Source of the DNA: Scenedesmus sp. PABB004
Taxonomy: Eukaryota
Length of the DNA stretch: 64,000 nucleotides
NCBI GenBank assembly: GCA_014905635.1
Contig: JABVCE010000005.1
Coordinates: 186,001 to 250,000, forward strand
Direction of reading: 5' to 3'
Under the pieces are notes generated by a model, which was not told the DNA's origin, did no database searches, and saw only the letters and a list, made by a program, of their open reading frames with translations. Shown here one piece after another: positions 5,220 through 44,200 of this stretch. The first letter of the stretch is position 1, and every line of letters starts with the position of its first letter. The position numbers were made by a program, and so were the translations under genes.

Positions 5220-5300
<81 letters not shown>

Positions 5301-5882
5301 CGCACGCACGCACACACGCACCTGGAAGATGTATTGGCAGAACGCGAGCGTGATGTTGGCGGGCCCGAGCGCCGCGAGCTCGGTCGTGCCCGCGAACTGG
5401 CCGATGAACACAACGTCAGTCAGCCCCATCATCGGGTCTGCCAGCGGGATGAGCAGCCCCGGCGCCATGAATCGAACCATGCGCCCCAGCAGCGCGCCGC
5501 TCCAGGCCCAGTCGGCGGCGGACGCGGCGGCGCCGTCGCCGCCGCCGCCGCTGGCGGCGGGCCCCGGGCCCGCCGCCGCCGCGGCGCCGCACGCCACGCG
5601 GCGGCGACGCCGCCGGCGGCGGCGCCAGGGCGCGCACGCCACGGCGCTGCCAGCGGCTGCCACGACTGCTGTTGGTGCTGCTGGTGGTGGTGCTGGTGGT
5701 CGTGGTGGTGCTGCTGCTGCTGGGGACGCGCCGGCGCCCGCCGCGGCGCACGAGCTGCTGCTGCTGCGCGGCGCCCCTGCCGACGCGTGCGCGGCCGGCT
5801 GGGCCCGGCGGGGGCCACGCCAGGGGCACGGCGGGCTCACCAGCGCTGCGACCGCGTGCGGCTGCAGCGCCTGCGCCCGCAT
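3494..5882 (-). CDS. MATE (DinF/DTX-type) efflux family transporter, probably plastid-targeted; multi-exon
   Basis: Motifs LIPLADPMMGLTDVVFIGQ, ELAALGP, ATYLRIRALAQP, GGLLAQQDSRTP, GLRGAAATT, LAAHQ, GVLLARRDLGY. Confidence 0.9.
5221..5292. repeat. (CA)n microsatellite in a MATE gene intron
   Basis: About 36 perfect CA units seen directly. Confidence 0.98.
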
Positions 5883-26205: not shown

Positions 26206-29200
26206 ATGTGGGGGTTCTTCGCGCTCGGCCTCGTCGGCGTGGGCAGCACCATCGCGGCGCTGCTGCGCCGCTACGCCGCGCCGAGCGTGCCGCTCGTCGT
26301 GAGCGGCGCGACCGCGTACGCGTGGCTGGTGAGCATGAGCATCGTGCTCATCACGCCCATGGACGTCGCCGCCGCGCTCGCACACGCGCCCGAGGCGGCC
26401 ATCGGTGTGCTCTGGAAGATCACGTACTGGTCAACGCAGGCGCGCCGCGCGACGCCGCGACGCGCCGCCGCCGCCTGGCTGGGCGCGGCGCCGCCGCGCC
26501 GCCACCACCCAACGACGGCGCGCACCGCGCCGCGCCACTCCCCCAGTCCCCCCGCCGCCGCCGGTCACGCCCGTGCCCTCGCGCCCCCGCTGCTCGCGCC
26601 CCCGCCCCCGTGCCCGCCTGGCCGCCCCGCCGCGCGCGCAGGTGCTGACGTGGCTGGCGCTGCCGTTCTTCCAGGTCTACGCCGACGCGGGCGACTTCAC
26701 CGTCGGCGGGCGCGCCCTGACCAGCCTCAAGGAGAACGGCCTGCTCTACGGCCTCGCCGCGGCGGCGGGTGCGCGAGCGCGCGCATGTGGCGGGAGGGGG
26801 GGAGGGGGGCACTGGGTGTGTGCACTGCGTGTGTGGGCGTGTGCTGGGCGGCTGGGCACGCGCGCGTGGGGCGTGCGTGGGCGTGCGCGGCCGCCCCTCC
26901 GCGCCCCGCCGCCGGCGCGCGCCAGCGGACGCCCGCCCGCCTCGGCACTGCCGCCCGCCTCCCGCCCACCCACAACCTCCACAACCTCCCGCGCTTTCTC
27001 TGCCCCCACCAGGCGTGGTGGGCCTGCTGGTCATCGTCGTCGTGGAGCGCTCCCTCGCCGCGAGTGACCTGCCCGCGCTGGGCATGGCGCTGTCCAACAC
27101 GTTTGGCCTGTGCGCTGGCATCCTGCTCATGGGGTACGGCCTGGTCGAGATCCCGCGCGAGACGTGGAAGGCCGACCCCGCGCACCAGCTCAAGTGGTGC
27201 GCGCACAGGTGCGGGCGCGGCAAGGGCGCGGCGGCGGCGAGGCGGCGGCGAGGCTGCGGCGGCAAGGCTGCGGCGGCAAGGCGGCGGCGGCAAGGCCGCG
27301 GGGGCGTCAAGGCTGCGGCGCGCCGGGCGAGCCGCCGCTTGCGCGACCGCCGCCGCGGCGCAGGGCGGGTCGGTTTGCTGAGGAGGTGCTGCGCACGACG
27401 GCTGAGCTGGAGAGCGTCGTGACGGTCATCGTGGCCAACGACAAGCAGATGCCGCGCCGCGACCCGCTGCGGCCCTACATGGCGGTGCGACGCCGCGCGC
27501 CGCGCGGCGCGGCGCGGCGGCCGGGCACGGCGCGCGCGCGCCGGCCTCTCGCTGTGTGCTGCGCGGCGCGTGTGAGGCCCCCCGCCGCTGCGCCGCGCCG
27601 CCGCGGCGCGCGCAGATCATCTCGGCAGCCGCCGAGAGCGAGTCGCCGGTCAAGCCGAGCGCCGTGCTGGCGGGGGGGTACGACCTGGACGCGCTGCACG
27701 CGGGTGCGCCGCGCGGCGGCGCCCCGCACCGCATTGGGGGGCCTCGCCGCGCCGCGTGCGCCCGCGCTTCACTCCACCTCCCTCCTCCCTCGCTCGCTCC
27801 GCGCGCACGCTCGCGCGCTCTCTCCGCTCTCGCTCCCCGTCCAAACCGCGGCCGCCCCCTCCTTCAAACTCAATTTCAAACGCCGCCCCCGTCCCCTCAC
27901 CTCATCTCACCTCCCGCCCCGCCAGACGACCTGGAGTACAACTATGACATGGCCGGCCTCGCCGCGCTGCGCCGCCGCCTCGCGGCCGCGATCCACGAGT
28001 TCCAGGCCGCCGCCGCGCAGTACGAGGCCGTCGTGCGCCAGGCGCGCGGCAACGCCTGCCGCGCCGCACGCGGGCCGGCGCGGCGCGCAGCAGGCCCAGC
28101 GCGCTGAAGCGTCCCGCCCTGAGCCCCGCCCGCGCCCGCACCTGTCGGCGCAGGCGCTGGAGCACGAGGCGGTGGTCAAGTGCCGCCAGCTGGGCGTGTA
28201 CGAGCCCCCCGGCCTGCCGCCCGGCGCGACGGGCCTCGCCGCGGCCGTGCGGCGCGCGGCGTGGCGCTGGCGCTGCGTCGCGCAGGTGCGGCGCCGCCCC
28301 TCGCGCGCGCCCCGGCGCGCCTGCTCCCGCGCCCGCTCAGCCGCGCCCGCGCCCGCGCCCGCGCCCCGCCCCGCGTTGGCAGCCGGGCGCGCGCAAGGTG
28401 GTGGCGGCGCTGCTCGCGGCGATGAGCGGCGTGGTGGTGTGGAGCGAGGCGACCATCTTCACCGGCGGCCACCCAGACCTCTCGCCCTTCTCACGTGCCA
28501 TTCGGTGCGCGCCACGCCGCGCGTGCGCGTGCGCCTCGAGCTCCGCCCGCCTGGTCCCCCGCTCACGCACGCTCACGCGCGCTCACGCGCCGCCCGCGCC
28601 GCCGGCCGCGCCGCCGCTCGCGCAGCGGCGCCGCGGGGCGGCAGTGGGGCGCGCAGCTGCTCGTCGCGCTGCCGCTCGGCTACATCTGCTGGTGCACCGC
28701 CTTTGCGCTCTTCCGGCTCAACGCGTTCAACTACAACAAGCTCGCCCCGCGCGCGACGACGGGCGCGGCGCTGATGCAGAACGGCAGCCTCATGGCGCGC
28801 TTTGCCGCGCCGACGTGCTGGAACCTGCTGCACATGGTGCACATGGACGCCGCCGTCGACGCGAGCGGCGCAAAGACCGTCTTCACGCAGGCGCGCGCGC
28901 ACGGAGGGGCGAGCGTGGCGGCGGCCGGGGGGAGGGGCAAGCGCGCGCGCGCGGCGCACGCGCCGCGCCGCGCCGCGCCGCGCGCGCCGCGCGCGCGCGG
29001 CGAGGCGCCCCGCGCGCGCGCGCCGTCACGCGCTGCCGCGCCTGCGGCCGCCTCACCTCACGTCTGCTGCCCGCCGCAGAACATGGGCGGCATGACCGTC
29101 CTGCCGGTGCTGGGGCAGCACCTCAACACCTACCTGCCCGCGCTGCTCGTGCTGCACGTGAGCCTGGTGTGGTTCAACCTCTGGGACCGCCTCGCCGGCG

Positions 29201-30236
29201 CGTGCGTGGGCTCGCGGTTCAGGTTCAACAAGTGAGCCGCCGCGCGTGCGGCGTGGGGTTTGCACCTGGCGCGCCAGGCGGCGCGCTGGGCAGCTCGGCG
29301 GTGCCCGCGCGCGCGCCCTGACGTGGCCCTCTCTCTGTCCCTCTCTGCGCCTGCGTCCTGCCTGCGTCCCTGCCTGCGTCCCTGCCTGCCCACGTGTGCG
29401 GCGGGCAGCGACGACGTGGACGACCAGTACACGGAGAAGGGCCGCCTGCTGCTGCGCAAGGAGGGCGAGGCGCTCGCCAACGGCCTGCGCATCGGCGAGG
29501 TGCTCGCGGCGGACGACCTGGAGCTGCAGCTCCCCGGCTTCAAGCAGCGCAAGCGTGAGGCAGCCCGCGCCGCGCAGCGCCTGCGCAGCGCCGCGCCGCG
29601 CAGCGCCCCCCGCGCAGAGCACGCGCGCCGCCGAGCCCCAGCGCGTGCCGACGTGCCGACGCGTCGACGTGCCGCGACGTGTGCCGCCGCGCAGGGCTGA
29701 GGAAGAAGACCAGCTGGTTCAGCTTCGGCCGCCCCGCGGCCGGCAGCGGCGGCGGCGCCGCCGCGGGCGGCGACGCGGGCGGCGCCGGCGCCGCGGGCGG
29801 CGCGGGCAGCAGCGCGGCCGCGGCGGCGGCCGGCGGCGCCGCCGGGAGCCGCCTGGAGCGGCTGCCCATGCTGGGGTCCATGCTCGCGGGGCGCAGCGAC
29901 GGCGACGCGGCCGGCGAGGGCCGCGCGGGCCTGCTGTCGAGCCTTATGGGCAACAAGTGAGAGAGGGGCCAGGGGCGGGGCAAGAGCGGGGGCTGGGAGC
30001 GCGCGCGTCAGCGGGCTGGGCTGGCGCGGGCGCCGCTGAGCGCCGCCGCCGCCCCCGCCCGCGCGCGCGCGCGCAGGCACGGCGCGAGCCCCGCGAGCAG
30101 CGACGGCGAGGGCGCGCGGTCGGGCCTGGACGGCATCTTTGCCGAGATCTCGACGCCCGCGCCGGGCGGCGGCCGCGGCCGCGGCGGCGGCGGCGGCGGC
30201 GGCGCGGGCACGGCGCGGCGGGGGTCGCGCGGCTGA
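26206..30236 (+). CDS. LMBR1-family (LMBRD2-like) multi-pass membrane protein; multi-exon
   Basis: LLRRYA, ITPMDV, LWKITYWSTQ|VLTWLALPFFQVYADAGDFT, SLKEN, ALSNTFGL..LMGYGLVEIPR, WSE, YLPALL, LWDRL. Confidence 0.93.
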
Positions 30237-30454
30237 GCGCGTGCGTGCGGCCGCTCTGGATTCAATTCACGGTAACAGCGGCAGTGCCGAGACACAAGGC
30301 AAGCAAGCACGGAGCGCGGAGGGTCGGGTCAGGCAGGCACCAGCACAGCACAGCACACCGCGCTCAGCGCGCAAGGCCCGGCGCGCGCAAGGCTCTGCGA
30401 GTTCACCACCTGCGCAGGTGGTGCGCATGCATGCATGCACAGCACGACGCGCAC
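29954..30454 (+). repeat. Direct repeat copy A: last intron, last exon and 3'UTR of the LMBR1-family gene
   Basis: Core 30084-30454 is near-identical to 32823-33191. Weaker similarity extends to the last splice donor (caagtgag..ggggcc). Confidence 0.92.
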
Positions 30455-30533
30455 GTGGCGCAGCCGCCGGCCCGCTCGACTGAAGCTGCTTGTGCCACGG
30501 GTGTTGCTCAACTGGAGCTTGTTGATCAGGCTG

Positions 30534-30618
30534 GTGTGCGCAATGTTAACATTGCTCAACGTTGCGCACACACACCACGGGTGTGCGCAACGTTGAGCAA
30601 TGTTAACATCGCGCACAC
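30534..30618. repeat. Hairpin H1: 38-bp arms with 1 mismatch, 9-nt loop, AT-rich, nested palindromes
   Basis: gtgtgcgcaatgttaacattgctcaacgttgcgcacac / gtgtgcgcaacgttgagcaatgttaacatcgcgcacac. Confidence 0.95.
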
Positions 30619-30623
30619 ACCGT

Positions 30624-30689
30624 GCCGCGCGAGCACCGCGCAGCCCGCGCCGCGCGAGCACCGCGCAGCCCGCGCCGCGCGAGCACCGC
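30624..30689. repeat. Tandem repeat, 25-bp unit x ~2.6
   Basis: Unit gccgcgcgagcaccgcgcagcccgc repeated head-to-tail. Confidence 0.9.
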
Positions 30690-30739
30690 CCGTGCCGCCG
30701 CCCCACCGGGGGCTGCTAGGGCACGGCGAGGGGCCAGCC

Positions 30740-30820
30740 GTCCCTGCCGTTGTACAGGTCCGCGGCAGCGTGGGCCTCAACACCCTGAACTACCCAGCGG
30801 ACCTGTACAACGGCAGGGAC
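30740..30820. repeat. Hairpin H2: perfect 24-bp arms, 33-nt loop
   Basis: gtccctgccgttgtacaggtccgc (30740-30763) / gcggacctgtacaacggcagggac (30797-30820). Confidence 0.95.
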
Positions 30821-30932
30821 CTTGTCGCTGCCCTCCTCGGCGCGGCCGCCGCGCCGGGGTCGTCGCCGTCGTCGCTGCCGCTGCCGCCGCTGCCGCCGCT
30901 GTCGCCACGCCCGCCGCTGCCGCCGCCCTCGA

Positions 30933-31057
30933 CCTCGCCCGTGTGGGGCACCGCCTGGGAGGGCCGCACAGATCTTGCAGCTCAACTTGTTCAGACTCAA
31001 CATGCTGTACGGCAAGATCTGTGCGGCCCTCCAAGGCGGTGCCGCACCCGAGCGAGG
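30933..31057. repeat. Hairpin H3: 32-bp core arms (1 mismatch) with imperfect extension, 33-nt loop
   Basis: ggcaccgcctgggagggccgcacagatcttgc (30947-30978) / gcaagatctgtgcggccctccaaggcggtgcc (31012-31043). Confidence 0.95.
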
Positions 31058-31060
31058 CCG

Positions 31061-31214
31061 GCGAGGCGCGCGCCCGCCGGCTCAGGCGCGCCAACGGCGG
31101 CCACCGCCGTCGCCTCCGGCTCCTCCCGGCTGTGACCAACGATGGGCAGCTGGAGGCGGCGGCGGCGGCCGCCACCGCCGCGGCCGCGGCCGAGCCGGCC
31201 GGCGCGCGGCTCGC
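31061..31214. repeat. Hairpin H4: bipartite stem (26-bp core plus ~21-bp outer stem)
   Basis: Core ggcggccaccgccgtcgcctccggct / agctggaggcggcggcggcggccgcc. Outer gcgaggcgcgcgcccgccggctc / gagccggccggcgcgcggctcgc. Confidence 0.85.
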
Positions 31215-31400
31215 CGCCGCCGCCCAGCGGCAGCAGCAACCGAGCTGCGGTGAGGTCGCGCAGCGCGGCGCCTGCGTCGCCCTGCAGCAGCTCGCCCACC
31301 CGCGCCAGCAGCGCCTGCAGCCCCGCCACCGCCCAGCACGGCGGCGGCAAGCTCGCCGCGAGCGTCGGCGGGCGCGAGCGCGACCAGCGCGCGCCCGCGC

Positions 31401-31498
31401 GCCGGCGGCGGCACCACGAGCTGCGGCGATTGCTCCTCTCCCTCCTAGACGCAGGAGGGAGAGGAGTGATCGGCGCAGCTCGTGGTGCTGCCGCCGGC
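31401..31498. repeat. Hairpin H5: 46-bp stem, 6-nt loop, 3 G-U pairs and 1 mismatch on the + strand
   Basis: gccggcggcggcaccacgagctgcggcgattgctcctctccctcct-agacgc-aggagggagaggagtgatcggcgcagctcgtggtgctgccgccggc. Confidence 0.95.
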
Positions 31499-31701
31499 AC
31501 CGTCCGCGGCGGCACGTCGCGCACGAGTGGCGGCGGCAGGAGCTGCGGCAGCAGAAGCCAGCGGCGGCAGCGGCAGTCGCGCGCCCGCGCCGCGAGCACC
31601 TCGCCGCGCGCTGCGAGCTGCAGCATCGCCTCGGGCGGCGCTGCGACGCCTGGGAGCACGCGCGTGCCCCAGTCGCCAAGCGGGGCCCGCGCGCCGCAGC
31701 T

Positions 31702-31808
31702 CGCGGCGGGCACGCGGGGCGCGCGGCCTGAAGGTCGTCCATCTCGTCCATACACAAAGAGATGGGCAGATCGACGACCTTGAGGCCGCGCTCCGCGTGC
31801 CCGCCGCG
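31702..31808. repeat. Hairpin H6: ~45-bp bulged stem, A-rich 10-nt loop
   Basis: cgcggcgggcacgcgg..gcggcctgaaggtcgtc-catctcgtccat / atgggcagatc-gacgaccttgaggccgcgctccgcgtgcccgccgcg. Confidence 0.9.
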
Positions 31809-31822
31809 CGCCGCGTGCCCGC

Positions 31823-31928
31823 CTCCACCGGCGGCGCGCCCTGGTCGTGCCCGCGCGCCGCAGCTCGCGGGCTGCTTCTGCGCCGGGGGCTGCGACGTGC
31901 GGGCACGACCAGGGCGCGGCCGGTGGAG
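31823..31928. repeat. Hairpin H7: ~40-bp stem
   Basis: ctccaccggc..cgcgccctggtcgtgcccgcgcgccgcagctc / gggctgcgacgtgcgggcacgaccagggcgcg-gccggtggag. Confidence 0.92.
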
Positions 31929-31996
31929 TGCCGCGCCACGCCGCCGGGCACCTCGGCCGTGGGCTGCTGGCGGGTGAGCGACGTGCGCTGCCAGCG

Positions 31997-32100
31997 CGCT
32001 CGCCCCCGGCGCGCGTGGTGCGCGCCGTGCTGGAAGCAGACGCCGAGGCCGGGTTTGCCTTCCAGCACGGCGTGCGCCACGTGCGCCGAGGGGGCGGGCG
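31997..32100. repeat. Hairpin H8: 30-bp core in which all three non-Watson-Crick positions are G-U on the + strand, plus inner and outer stems
   Basis: cggcgcgcgtggtgcgcgccgtgctggaag (32007-32036) / cttccagcacggcgtgcgccacgtgcgccg (32059-32088). Confidence 0.93.
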
Positions 32101-32128
32101 AGTACGCGACGTAGGAGTCGTGCGCCTC

Positions 32129-32215
32129 GTGCGCCGCGTGTCGACATACGTGCAGGTCGGCGGCTCTCGTACGAGAGCCGCCAACCTGCACGTCGCGTGC
32201 ACGCCCGCGGCGCAC
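32129..32215. repeat. Hairpin H9: 46-nt spacerless palindrome (1 mismatch) with outer 10-bp stem
   Basis: acgtgcaggtcggcggctctcgt|acgagagccgccaacctgcacgt at 32148-32193. Outer gtgcgccgcg / cgcggcgcac. Confidence 0.93.
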
Positions 32216-32755
32216 CCCGGGCGCTGCTTTGGCGCGGCACTCAGCGGCGGCGGCGCCGGCAGCAGCGGCGGCGCCATGCCAGCCAGCGCGCGCCGACGGG
32301 GCCGGAGTGGTGCGGGCCTGCGCGGGGGGGGGGGCGCCGGGGCGGCGGGCGCGTCGGCGCGGCCGTCGGCGCAGCAGCGGCGGGCGCCAGCACGCCGCGC
32401 GCGTGCGACGGGGGCGCCGGCGGGCGCGGAGCCGCGCCGAGCGGCCCGCGGGGGTGTGTCCCGGGCGCGTGCGGGGGCGCGCCTGGGGCACGCGCCTCCA
32501 CACGACGGCGGCGCCCTGCGACGCGCTCGCGCCGTCGGCGCTGCTCGCGCGCGCGCAGCGGCCCAGCAGGCCCGCCAGGGCCGCGGTCTCGGGCTTCATG
32601 CTGCCTGTATCGCAATCTGGCGGCGCGGGGAGGGCTGTCAAGGGCTCGCGGGGCCAGCTCGGGCGGGGCCGCGGCGGCACAGCGCCGCGCAGGCGCTGCT
32701 GCATGGGCGGCGACCGCGGGCAGGGCGGGGCTGCGGGCATCTCCGTGGGGCGGGG

Positions 32756-33191
32756 CAAGTGAGGGGCCCGGGCGGGGGGCACACGGCGCGGGCTGTGGCG
32801 CGGGCGCCGCTGAGCCCCGCCGGCGAGCCCCGCGAGCAGCGACGGCGAGGGCGCGCGGTCGGGCCTGGACGGCATCTTTGCCGAGATCTTGACGCCCGCG
32901 CCGGGCGGCGGCCGCGGCCGCGGCGGCGGCGGCGGCGGCGGCGGCGCAGGCACGGCGCGGCGGGGGTCGCGCGGCTGAGCGCGTGCATGCGGCCGCTCTG
33001 GATTCCCAGCCACTCACGGTACAGCGGCAGTGCCGAGACACAAGGCAAGCAAGGACGGCGCGCGGAGGGTCAAGGTCGGGTTCAGGCAGGCACCAGCACA
33101 GCACAGCACAGCACACCGCGCTCAGCGCGCAAGGCCCGGCGCGCGCAAGGCTCTGCGAGTTCACCACCTGCATGCGCAGCACGACGCGCAC
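32756..33191 (+). repeat. Direct repeat copy B: degenerate duplicate of the LMBR1-family gene 3' end (splice acceptor deleted)
   Basis: Matches copy A through SGLDGIFAEI..RRGSRG*, gcagtgccgagacacaaggcaagcaag and ggctctgcgagttcaccacctgc. Lacks the gcgcag acceptor and has several small indels. Confidence 0.92.
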
Positions 33192-33513
33192 TTCCACTAA
33201 CAGGCAGGCCCAGGGCCCCGCCTCGCCGCCGCCGGCCGGCCGCGGATTTCCGCGGCGGGCGCGGCGCAAATCACAGGGAGGGCAGCCGGCTCCAAGCATC
33301 ATCGCGTCAAATGTGGTTATTGACCGCGCGGCGCGCGCCAGCCAGGCCGGCCCGTGCGGCGCCAGCAGCGAAAAATCGGCGCCGCCGCCCGCGCCTGCGC
33401 TGCGCTGCGCTGCGCAGCGCAAGCGCCACACACCCCCTCGCCCCCGCGCCGCACGGGCGGCGCCCGCCGTCGCGGCGCGGCCCCGCCGTCGCGGCGCCCG
33501 CGCGCTCACGCGC

Positions 33514-35077
<1,564 letters not shown>

Positions 35078-41260: not shown

Positions 41261-44200
41261 TCAGACGACCGCAGTCAGGTCGCCGTACCCCTGCGCCGCC
41301 GCCTCGTGCGCTGCGCCGCCCGCCGGCCCGCCGCCCTCGCGCGCGCTGCCGTCGCCGCCGCCGCCCTCGCGCGCGCCGCCGCCAGCAACACTGCCGCCGC
41401 CCGACACGCCGCCGCCGCCGCCGTCGGCGAGCACCAGGTGCCGGCTGACTGCCCGGATGACGCTCTGGTAGAGCTCCGGGCTCGCGCAGCGCAGGCTGCG
41501 GTGCAGCGGCAGCCGCAGCAGCACCGGCGCCGCGCCGCGCTCGGCGCCGCGCCGCGCGCCGCCGGCGGCGCCAGCGCCGGCGCCGCCGCCGCCAACACCG
41601 CCGCCAGGCGGCGGCGCGCCGCGCCGCGGCGGCAGGCGCGGGAGCGCGAGCTGGCTGTGGTACTCCAGGATGATGCGCAGGCTGTCCTCCGCGCCGCGCA
41701 CGTGGTCGACGCGGGCGCACGGCAGCAGCCAGCGCAGCGTGTAGGTCGCGCCGCCCGCGGCCGCGCCGCGCGTGGGCAGCGCGGCGCGCAGGTACACGAC
41801 CGCGCGCCGCGTGAGCAGCAGCAGCCGGCAGCTGCGCGTCGCGAGGACCTCGACCACGGTGTCACCCGCGAGCGGCTCGCCGAGGCCGGGCAGGCGCGCC
41901 TGCCAGCTCGCGACGAGCGCGGCGCGCAGCGCGCCGCCGCCGCCGAGCGCGGCGACGACGAGCGCGCCCTCGGGGCCGGGGCCCGCGCTCGGGGGCGGCG
42001 GGCCCTCCGGCACGCCGCCCGGCGCGCGCACGCGGCGCACGAGCTTGCCCTGGATGCCGCGCCGGCCGAGGCAGAGCAGGCCCGCGCCGCGCAGCGCCTT
42101 GCTCGCGCCGTCGACGGCGCCCATGACGGGGCGCACGAGCAGCCCGCCGCCGCCCTTGACCAGGCCGACCGCGAGGCCCGCCAGCCCGAGCGCGCCGGGC
42201 AGGCGCAGCCCCGCGGCGGGGTCGAGCAGCAGCCCCGCGACGCCCGACGCGGCGCCGAGGTAGAGCTCCGCCGCGGCCTGGCTGAACGCCTCGCCCGCGG
42301 TGTCGGGCATGCGCACGTAGCGCTGCAGCGCGGCGTGGTCGCTCAGCGGGCCGCCGCGCTCGACGGGGACGAGCGCGAGGCTCGCGAGCACGAAGCGGCT
42401 CGTCACGCCGACGAGCTGGCTCAGCAGCGTGAGCGCGACGTGCCCGACCGCAAACGGCAGGCTCCAGGGGTTGCGCCGCGCGACGATCATCTCCAGGCCC
42501 AGGTCGATCATGCTCACGCCCGCCCACAGGATGCTGGCGGGGATCTGGGTAAGCCCAGGGCCGACGCCGCCGAGGACCTTGCGGCTCTGCGCGACCGCGG
42601 CCCAGCGGTAGTGCCGCGCGAGCGCCGCGGCGAGGCCGACCGCGTTGAGCAGGCGGTGCTCGAGGCCAAAGCCCCCGAGCGTGAGCCCCACGTCGCTGAC
42701 GTTGATGAGCTGCAGCCCGCTGTCGCCGCTCAGGCGGTTGACCATGCCCTTGACCAGCAGGCGCTGCATGTCGTCAAGCATGCCGCCGGCCCCGCCGCCG
42801 CCGCCGACGCCGCCCCATGCGCCGCTGCCGCCGCTGCCGCTGCCGCCGCCGTTGCCGCCGGCGCCGCTGCCGCGCTGCGCGGCGGCGTCCTCGGCGCCGC
42901 CGGGCGCCGCGCCGGCGCCCGCGAGCGCGCCCGCGCCGGCGGTGCGGAAGCTGCTGGTGAGCGCGATGGTGACGTTGACGCAGATCGCGCTGACGGTGAG
43001 CCGCTCCAGGTAGTACCAGGTGCTGCTCTGCCCGCGCATGCTGCTCAGCTCGGCGTCGTGCTTCTCCGGCAGCCACGCGAGCACCAGCCCGCTCGCGAGC
43101 ACGCACCGCTTGGCCGCCGCCGCGCGGCGGCCGGCCTTGGCCGCGGCGGCGGACGCCGCCGACGCGCCCGGCGGCGCGAGGCCCGGCGCCGCGGCGCCGC
43201 CGCCCGCCGCCTGCAGGTGCTGCAGCCAGGCGGCGCCGCCGCCGGAGCGGGCGCCGGCGTCGCCCGCGGCGAGCGGGTGCTCCGCGCCGAGGCCCGCCAG
43301 CGCCCGCGGCGCGGGCGAAGCGCGCTGCCCGGGCGCGGCCGCGCCGCGCGCTGCCAGCGCGCCGCCCGCCGGCGGCAGCGCCGGCGCGCCGCCGTCGCCG
43401 TCGCTGCCGCCGGCCGCGGTGGCGCCCTGCAGCATCGCGACGTGCCGCTGCCACGCCGCGTCCTGCCAGAGGTCCGGCAGCGGCAGGCTCTGCAGGAAGA
43501 CGTACACAGCCTCCAGGAAGGCCTGCGCGCGGCGCGAATGGGCAGCGGCGGCAGCGTGACGCGCGTGGGCGGGTGTGCGATGGCGGCGTGCGACGGCGTG
43601 CGCGCGACGGCGGGCCACCGCGCGCGCAGAACCGCGCCGCCGCCGCAGCCGCACCTGGTCGGTCTTGAGGTCCAGCGCGCCCACGAGCAGCTCCACCTTG
43701 CGGAACGACATGATCGCCGCCTTGCTCACCGCCGACTGGCTCGCCGCGCCGCCGCCCTCGTCGCTGCTGGCGGCACCGCCGACGAGCGCGCCGCCGCGCG
43801 CGCCGGCGGCCGGCGAGCCCGGCGCCGCGCGCCCGGCGGACGCCGCCGGCTCCTGCACGCCCGCGCCGGCGCCGGCCAGGGGCTTGGTGAGCGTCTGGCA
43901 CACGCTCAGGCGGATGAGCGGCACCCGCCGGCCGGCGGCGCCGCCGGCCTGCGCCAGCTGGCGGCCGCCGGCCGCGGCGCCGCCCGCCGCGAGCGCCGCC
44001 GCGCAGGGCGCCGCGGGGCGCGCCGTGGCCGCGGCCATGGCCTGGCCGGGGGCGTCCATGTCCTCCAGCGTCTTGTCCGTGGCGAGGCTGATGGCGCGGG
44101 GGTCGCGCTCCGCCACGTTCGCCATGTCCTGCGGCGCGGCGCGGCGCGGCGCGCAGGCGGCGGCGGCGGCGGCGGCGGCGGCTCAGCGGGGTGTGGCTCG

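Follow-up and report, generated by a model that had tools for sequence, protein, structure and literature searches.

Young plant MIRNA genes reportedly arise by inverted duplication of target-gene fragments, in the model that goes under the name of Allen et al. 2004. In Chlamydomonas, microRNA (miRNA) precursors are long, near-perfect hairpins. According to an extract of PMC4817775, most miRNAs of this alga come from introns and untranslated regions (UTRs) of coding RNAs. Template switching is a further source, described in an extract of PMC8794818 as creating hairpins and in one of PMC10710096 as making whole hairpins, even new miRNA genes, in single events. Here we analyse a 64,000-nucleotide stretch of the genome of the green alga Scenedesmus sp. 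PABB004 (contig JABVCE010000005.1, positions 186,001 to 250,000; hereafter the window, in whose own numbering all coordinates are given), in which eight strong hairpins lie within 1.7 kb downstream of an LMBR1-family gene, the other 62 kb having none. We propose, at a probability of about 0.5, that they arose by repeated local inverted duplication, through template switching, in a formerly coding stretch. We know of no described arrangement in which eight unrelated hairpins form a cluster.

The locus resembles the Allen et al. 2004 model in that its hairpin arms are still coding-like; that model, however, calls for a founder or target gene elsewhere with which the arms share extended similarity, whereas here none was found and the templates appear to lie immediately adjacent. 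It is also close to the template-switch mutations (TSMs) that make hairpins and de novo miRNA genes (Monttinen, Frilander and Loytynoja 2023, PMC10710096; Monttinen and Loytynoja, PMC8794818; both in extract), with which it has in common the adjacent inverted copy and perfect stems made in one step. As in the former of these extracts, the setting is the non-coding part of a gene, which permits co-transcription, and one small palindrome, H0, shows the states with and without the inverted segment in two paralogous copies. In contrast to the TSMs of that extract, which are dispersed singly, eight large hairpins are packed together here, in coding-like sequence of a green alga. The DCL3-dependent miRNA and small interfering RNA (siRNA) hairpins in introns and UTRs of Chlamydomonas (Valli et al. 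2016, PMC4817775, in extract) share the green-algal lineage, the long, near-perfect stems and the position beside or within a coding transcript; the present locus is known only as DNA. Terminal-repeat retrotransposons in miniature (TRIM), large retrotransposon derivatives (LARD), foldback elements and miniature inverted-repeat transposable elements (MITEs) are alike in having direct repeats, here of ~400 bp, around a non-coding interior with inverted repeats. Unlike TRIM or LARD elements, however, the locus has as its left 'long terminal repeat' (LTR) the conserved terminal exon of a host gene and, unlike foldback elements or MITEs, each hairpin sequence is single-copy within the 64 kb. Compared with a clustered regularly interspaced short palindromic repeats (CRISPR) array or a PIWI-interacting RNA (piRNA) cluster, the hairpins have neither a common repeat scaffold nor a common strand.

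Eight of nine hairpin candidates (numbered H1 to H9; Table 1) fold beyond shuffled sequence: their z-scores run from −6.5 to −12.5, and none of 200 dinucleotide shuffles matched them in stability. The ninth, H4 (31155-31224), was dropped as a hairpin, being of GC-only low complexity with a z-score of −1.8 and 9 of 200 shuffles folding as well. When 110-nt folds were slid along the 64 kb (~4,260 windows) and their minimum free energies (MFE) corrected for GC content, the 25 most extreme values all lay at 30,496-32,131, and of the 37 windows with a GC-corrected z-score below −2.5, 32 started in kilobases 30-32. The hairpins are genuine. Their arms measure 23-65 nt and are complementary at 83-100% of positions, and in all eight, as well as in H0, the inverted copy adjoins its template with a spacer of only 0-33 nt. 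Inverted repeats of similar length elsewhere in the window are low-complexity GC runs (70-82%). In the cores of H1, H3 and H6 the GC content falls to 0.50, 0.54 and 0.60 (window median 0.79), values among the lowest anywhere in the window; for these three hairpins this upholds the remark of an earlier note on this DNA that several loops are more AT-rich than their flanks.

That note had also read the loop plus one arm of several hairpins as clean peptides biased towards GC at third codon positions (GC3). All five peptides that it quoted are present exactly, at 30770-30841 (+) in H2, 30969-31037 (+) in H3, 31452-31493 (−) in H5, 31761-31802 (−) in H6 and 32048-32131 (−) in H8, and each spans the loop of a genuine inverted repeat and/or the inner part of one of its arms. 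Their GC3 is 0.86-0.93 and their GC2 0.26-0.50, the H3 peptide running 0.48/0.26/0.87 over the three codon positions. Stops make up 0.7% of triplets in the window, however, which leaves 24 codons open with P=0.84; because stops are so rare at ~80% GC, an open frame carries no weight. All five peptides and their GC3 bias are real, the openness of their frames is uninformative, and codon usage marks only H2 as exon-like. The measure was a log-likelihood ratio (LLR) of codon usage, with distant long open reading frames (ORFs) as its training set: the H2 value of 16.0 lies in the top 0.6% of six-frame windows and was reached in 0 of 500 Markov simulations, while H8, H6, H3 and H5 scored 8.7, 7.0, 5.0 and 0.6, respectively.

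Three-base periodicity was more telling; the mapped exons of the neighbouring LMBR1 gene served as the positive control and its introns as the negative one. When GC by codon phase was tested by permutation in non-overlapping 72-nt windows (p<0.05), periodicity showed in 12 of 24 windows of the hairpin region, compared with 19/20 in exons, 0/17 in introns and 0/13 in UTR or spacer. Eight windows of the hairpin region were periodic at p<0.01 (Fisher combined 7e-13), and although duplicated arms raise the count of periodic windows, they do so at most about two-fold, so that the contrast with 0/30 controls stands. Median best-of-six-frame LLRs were 13.2 for exons, 3.1 for the hairpin region and −1.1 for introns (intron maximum 7.2). 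The cores of H1 and H3 are strongly periodic, yet their codons are rare for the host and score low. Frames and strands switch between the units, just as the earlier note had it, giving a patchwork of periodic frames on both strands. The hairpin region is far more coding-like than the non-coding DNA of this genome and far less so than live exons; by its composition, the 2.3-kb stretch is probably what is left of a decayed gene or of pieces of genes. Annotators should note that at 80% GC an open frame is meaningless and that 3-base periodicity set against intron controls is informative.

The cluster is placed in the ~2.3 kb that separate the true 3′ end of the LMBR1 gene, within direct repeat 1 (DR1), from direct repeat 2 (DR2), which lacks a splice acceptor. 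By tblastn, the 706-aa protein P0001 (source name lmbrd2 of Scenedesmus sp. PABB004) aligns with the gene in 12 exon segments, nine of which reach at least 97% identity. Blastn paired 30060-30413 with 32798-33171, with 346 identical bases among 356 aligned. DR2 is without 35 nt that cover the 3′ splice site and the first codons of the terminal exon, and P0001 residues 663-688 match its positions 32841-32918 at 96%. It is a recent pseudo-copy of the gene end, comprising terminal exon and 3′ UTR, whose frame is still open and whose splice acceptor is gone. The terminal-exon motif GLDGIFAE of DR1 is kept in four of six aligned homologues, that of Chlamydomonas among them; because of this conservation, DR1 is taken to be ancestral host sequence, the original copy of the repeat, and not as an LTR. 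An LTR element of the TRIM or LARD type had been considered and was rejected on the same ground. The poly(A) signal motif of Chlamydomonas, TGTAA, has six matches in the window and none within 29.9-33.6 kb, so that the end of the LMBR1 3′ UTR could not be placed. A metagenome scan with the LMBR1 protein returned two loci (L001 and L002) at 41% identity, too distant for a comparison of the locus.

We favour the view that at least eight separate local inverted duplications would each have set a reverse-complement copy of a 23-65 nt segment beside that segment. Their maker would most likely be template switching in DNA synthesis (snap-back on the nascent or the opposite strand), acting repeatedly at this place; the substrate would be the unannotated ~2.3 kb between DR1 and DR2, with coding rhythm in about half its length, and the hairpins would need no function. 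For the eight large hairpins we infer this mechanism, and its serial timing, from several features. Compared with DR2, DR1 has an insertion of 21 nt in which the 10 nt just before it recur as an exact reverse complement; beyond the insertion the two copies are homologous again (H0). The left arm of H1 folds alone into a 14-bp hairpin (z −3.7), and the two H1 arms are 73% identical in direct orientation; since each arm is itself palindromic, at least two rounds of inverted copying are called for. One 10-mer, found four times in the 1.85-kb region and twice in the rest of the window (62 kb), ties H5, H6 and H7 together; H6 and H7 also have a stretch of ~21 nt in common, as read from the sequence, and tandem repeats of 25, 18 and 9 nt (Tandem Repeats Finder, TRF) are interspersed among the hairpins. 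Arm identity ranges from 100% in H2 to 83% in H3 and H6, and this spread of 0-17% divergence suggests hairpins of several ages. In H1, H5, H8 and H9 the periodic frame passes from one arm into the outer flank, which argues that the templates were local sequence and not self-contained inserts. The earlier note had offered, as one of two options, a single gene serially scrambled by template switching; local switching does fit best, but neither neighbouring gene can be recognised in the scrambled material (P0001 against the region, best E 2.8).

Several points weigh against this account. H0, which is small, is the only inverted segment for which a copy without it exists: DR1 and DR2 are the sole pair to compare, H1 to H9 having no such counterpart, and a gain in DR1 is indistinguishable from a loss in DR2. 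The formerly coding origin is inferred from composition, with no homologue found. Random mutation does not obviously predict the density of strong hairpins within 1.7 kb against their absence from the other 62 kb; a hotspot, one complex event or selection has to be invoked. Finally, transition mismatches in the stems are one-sided within each hairpin (0:4 in H3, 3:0 in H5 and 4:0 in H8; heterogeneity P=0.014), which could reflect G:U tolerance in RNA, that is, selection. G:T pairs of H8 are present in both arm orientations, so that the bias follows the strand, not the arm. H1, H3 and H9 favour the minus strand and H5, H7 and H8 the plus strand, with a switch between H3 and H5-H8; because the favoured strand differs among hairpins, a single transcript does not explain the bias. 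Possible causes are divergent transcription, mutation biased by strand or, the mismatches numbering 18, chance.

The last two of these points lend some weight to the idea of a polycistronic hairpin-RNA locus under selection, situated in the 3′ region of the LMBR1 gene, where hairpins would be kept as Dicer substrates (miRNA or siRNA precursors) regulating other genes. Stable stem-loops are extremely enriched here, their stems are long and near-perfect, one-sided transition mismatches are what tolerance of G:U on the transcribed strand would produce, and generic miRNA-precursor models are matched weakly, below threshold. However, the favoured strand is not uniform, no Rfam family reached its gathering score (best 45.2 bits against a cut-off of 76), and a search of the other 62 kb found no complementary targets of 18 nt or longer beyond chance; we regard selection for such RNAs as possible but unlikely. 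A more elaborate idea would merge it with template switching. A dying gene behind lmbrd2 would have been folded by serial template switching into eight near-perfect stem-loops, transcribed both ways from the middle (plus for H5-H8, minus for H1-H3, a division to which the one-sided G:U pattern would point) and diced against surviving relatives; or else the strand switch would mark a replication origin whose lagging-strand templates deaminate and snap back. The second version would account for the hotspot, but as a whole the idea is speculative and improbable. A single event would also explain the density. Microhomology-mediated break-induced replication (MMBIR), a mechanism like fork stalling and template switching (FoSTeS), could in one complex rearrangement have duplicated the 3′ end of the gene and stitched in short templated pieces in both orientations, leaving the hairpins as its scars. 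The patchwork of frames and strands would suit this, as would the exact bracketing of the cluster by a 97% identical duplication; yet arm identities of 83-100%, against 97% for that duplication, point to different ages unless some stems were imperfect from the start, and H1, with its nested palindromes, could not have been made in fewer than two rounds. We consider a single rearrangement distinctly unlikely.

The other option of the earlier note, that the hairpins were captured one by one from different genes, transposons or viruses as folded-back pieces and together form an RNA interference (RNAi) memory array with many targets, finds some agreement in the coding-like arm and loop stretches, periodic in differing frames and strands, and in the host-rare codons of the H1 and H3 cores, a pattern in keeping with sources that were foreign or little expressed. 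No search, however, gave a source. The note had proposed tracing each unit by BLAST to its source locus; run on the other 62 kb of the window and on protein, phage and viral-contig sets, such searches found no homologous source. Nucleotide comparison with the other 62 kb yielded no source locus for any hairpin unit, and a six-frame translation of the region set against the rest of the window none either (best E 0.26). Against 5.8 billion proteins, the H2 region had 850 candidates (among proteins of 361-1150 aa) and the H3 region 12 (among those of 271-2000 aa), none at E<=10. A 532-aa minus-strand ORF crossing H5-H9 had 0 matches among 1.84 billion representatives, two of two queries to the Atlas brought nothing of use, Pfam assigned no family to the six ORFs wholly or partly inside the region, phage records held no source for the hairpin units, and in viral contigs queries of 57-106 aa for H1, H2, H3 and H8 found 0 relatives in four of four scans. 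These negatives are weak, as fragments of 24 aa are hard to detect and the host genome was covered only within the 64-kb window; H5, H6 and H8 were not queried in their own frames in the large protein libraries. Also at odds with capture are the frames that continue into the flanks, the motifs common to H5, H6 and H7, the want of a repeat scaffold, with shared units limited to motifs of 10-21 nt, and a repeat content of only 1.31% for the genome in an extract of PMC12571836. The capture-array reading is unsupported, and we hold it to be hardly likely at all. Very unlikely, too, is a functional protein gene on the minus strand, missed by annotation and starting near 32600, that contains palindromes by chance, or else an assembly artefact. 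Codon-like minus-strand segments do follow in series from 32605 to 30841, and with 7,092 genes annotated in the genome (PMC12571836, in extract) some may have been missed; such a gene would, however, need at least three frames at a per-codon score about one-third that of real exons, and its translation is rich in Arg, Ala and Pro, with no relatives and no Pfam family. Artefacts of long-read assembly are kilobase-scale fold-backs, whereas these hairpins are 60-130 nt long and differ in divergence.

A degenerate LMBR1 copy in H2 and H3, suspected by eye from echoes of two exon motifs, was tried and rejected: tblastn of P0001 against the region gave nothing better than the E of 2.8 quoted above. 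The H3 echo scored E 5.8, the H2 echo gave no high-scoring segment pair and the order was not collinear, so both were put down to chance. A separate likeness, between 31022-31042 in the right arm of H3 and the end of an LMBR1 exon at 27468-27488 (19 of 21 positions, same strand, E 0.095 in a small search), is probably chance as well.

The locus looks like raw material for small-RNA genes and not like a silencing system that has been shown to work. Transcription of the region, whether as a long 3′ UTR, by read-through or as antisense RNA, would turn each hairpin into a near-perfect double-stranded stem of 22-54 bp, the type of substrate from which green-algal Dicer makes small RNAs. Serial template switching, if true, would make this a compact natural case, outside animals, of ex-coding DNA turned into Dicer-ready hairpins beside an expressed gene, and would show a step needed for de novo small-RNA genes. 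It also offers a simple test bed: eight hairpins that seem to differ in age, within 1.7 kb, in a genome of 40 Mb and ~1.3% repeats.

Table 1. Features of the hairpin locus and its surroundings in the window (DR, direct repeat; TRF, Tandem Repeats Finder; LLR, log-likelihood ratio).
Feature	Coordinates	Strand	Description	Evidence
H0	30404..30423		Zero-loop palindrome, 10+10 nt, DR1 only	DR1/DR2 alignment
H1	30534..30618		Arms 38 nt, 37/38 paired, loop 9 nt; each arm itself palindromic	z −11.5
Tandem repeat	30620..30689		25-nt unit, 2.8 copies	TRF, 97% matches
H2	30740..30820		Arms 24 nt, 24/24 paired, loop 33 nt; loop, right arm and flank exon-like on +	z −9.1; codon LLR 16.0
H3	30930..31060		Arms 65 nt, 54/65 paired; poorly paired core of ~37 nt with + strand periodicity	z −10.6
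H5	31401..31498		Arms 46 nt, 42/46 paired, loop 6 nt	z −12.5
H6	31689..31822		Arms about 61-63 nt, 83% paired, loop 10 nt; 18-nt tandem duplication in right arm	z −9.0
H7	31823..31928		Arms about 46-48 nt, 88% paired, loop 12 nt; ~21 nt common with H6, direct orientation	z −9.7
H8	31997..32100		Arms about 40-42 nt, 86% paired, loop 22 nt; inside continuous minus-strand periodic frame 31952-32170	z −10.9
H9	32148..32193		Arms 23 nt, 22/23 paired, no loop	z −6.5
LMBR1-family gene (lmbrd2-like)	26206..30236	+	Exons up to stop codon	Pfam LMBR1 E 2.6e-19; tblastn of P0001
DR1	30022..30455	+	Last coding exon (about 30078-30236) and start of 3′ UTR of LMBR1 gene	blastn, tblastn
DR2	32796..33194	+	97% identical copy of DR1	blastn, alignment
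DUF5765-family gene, 3′ part	33514..34814	−	Convergent, downstream	Pfam DUF5765 E 1.8e-11; strong codon periodicity 33400-33880 and 34240-34600

The window has a GC content of ~80% along its whole length and is eukaryotic in character, with intron-split genes and a (GT)73 microsatellite. An extract of PMC12571836 gives the genome of Scenedesmus sp. PABB004 as 39.8 Mb with 78.5% GC, 1.31% repeats and 7,092 genes, figures that agree with the composition of the window. No tRNA gene was found in the window. Within the LMBR1 gene, segment 27574-27702 matches P0001 at 79% only, in contrast to the 97-100% of 9 of the 12 exon segments, and the public gene model may differ from the window at this point. 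The microsatellite, at 33842-33987, lies in the 3′ part of the DUF5765 gene region, and a matching (AC)n run is found 28 kb off, at 5221-5321. An open frame of 973 aa at 41264-44182 (−), to which Pfam assigned no family, is strongly exon-like in composition, with a GC3 of 0.97.

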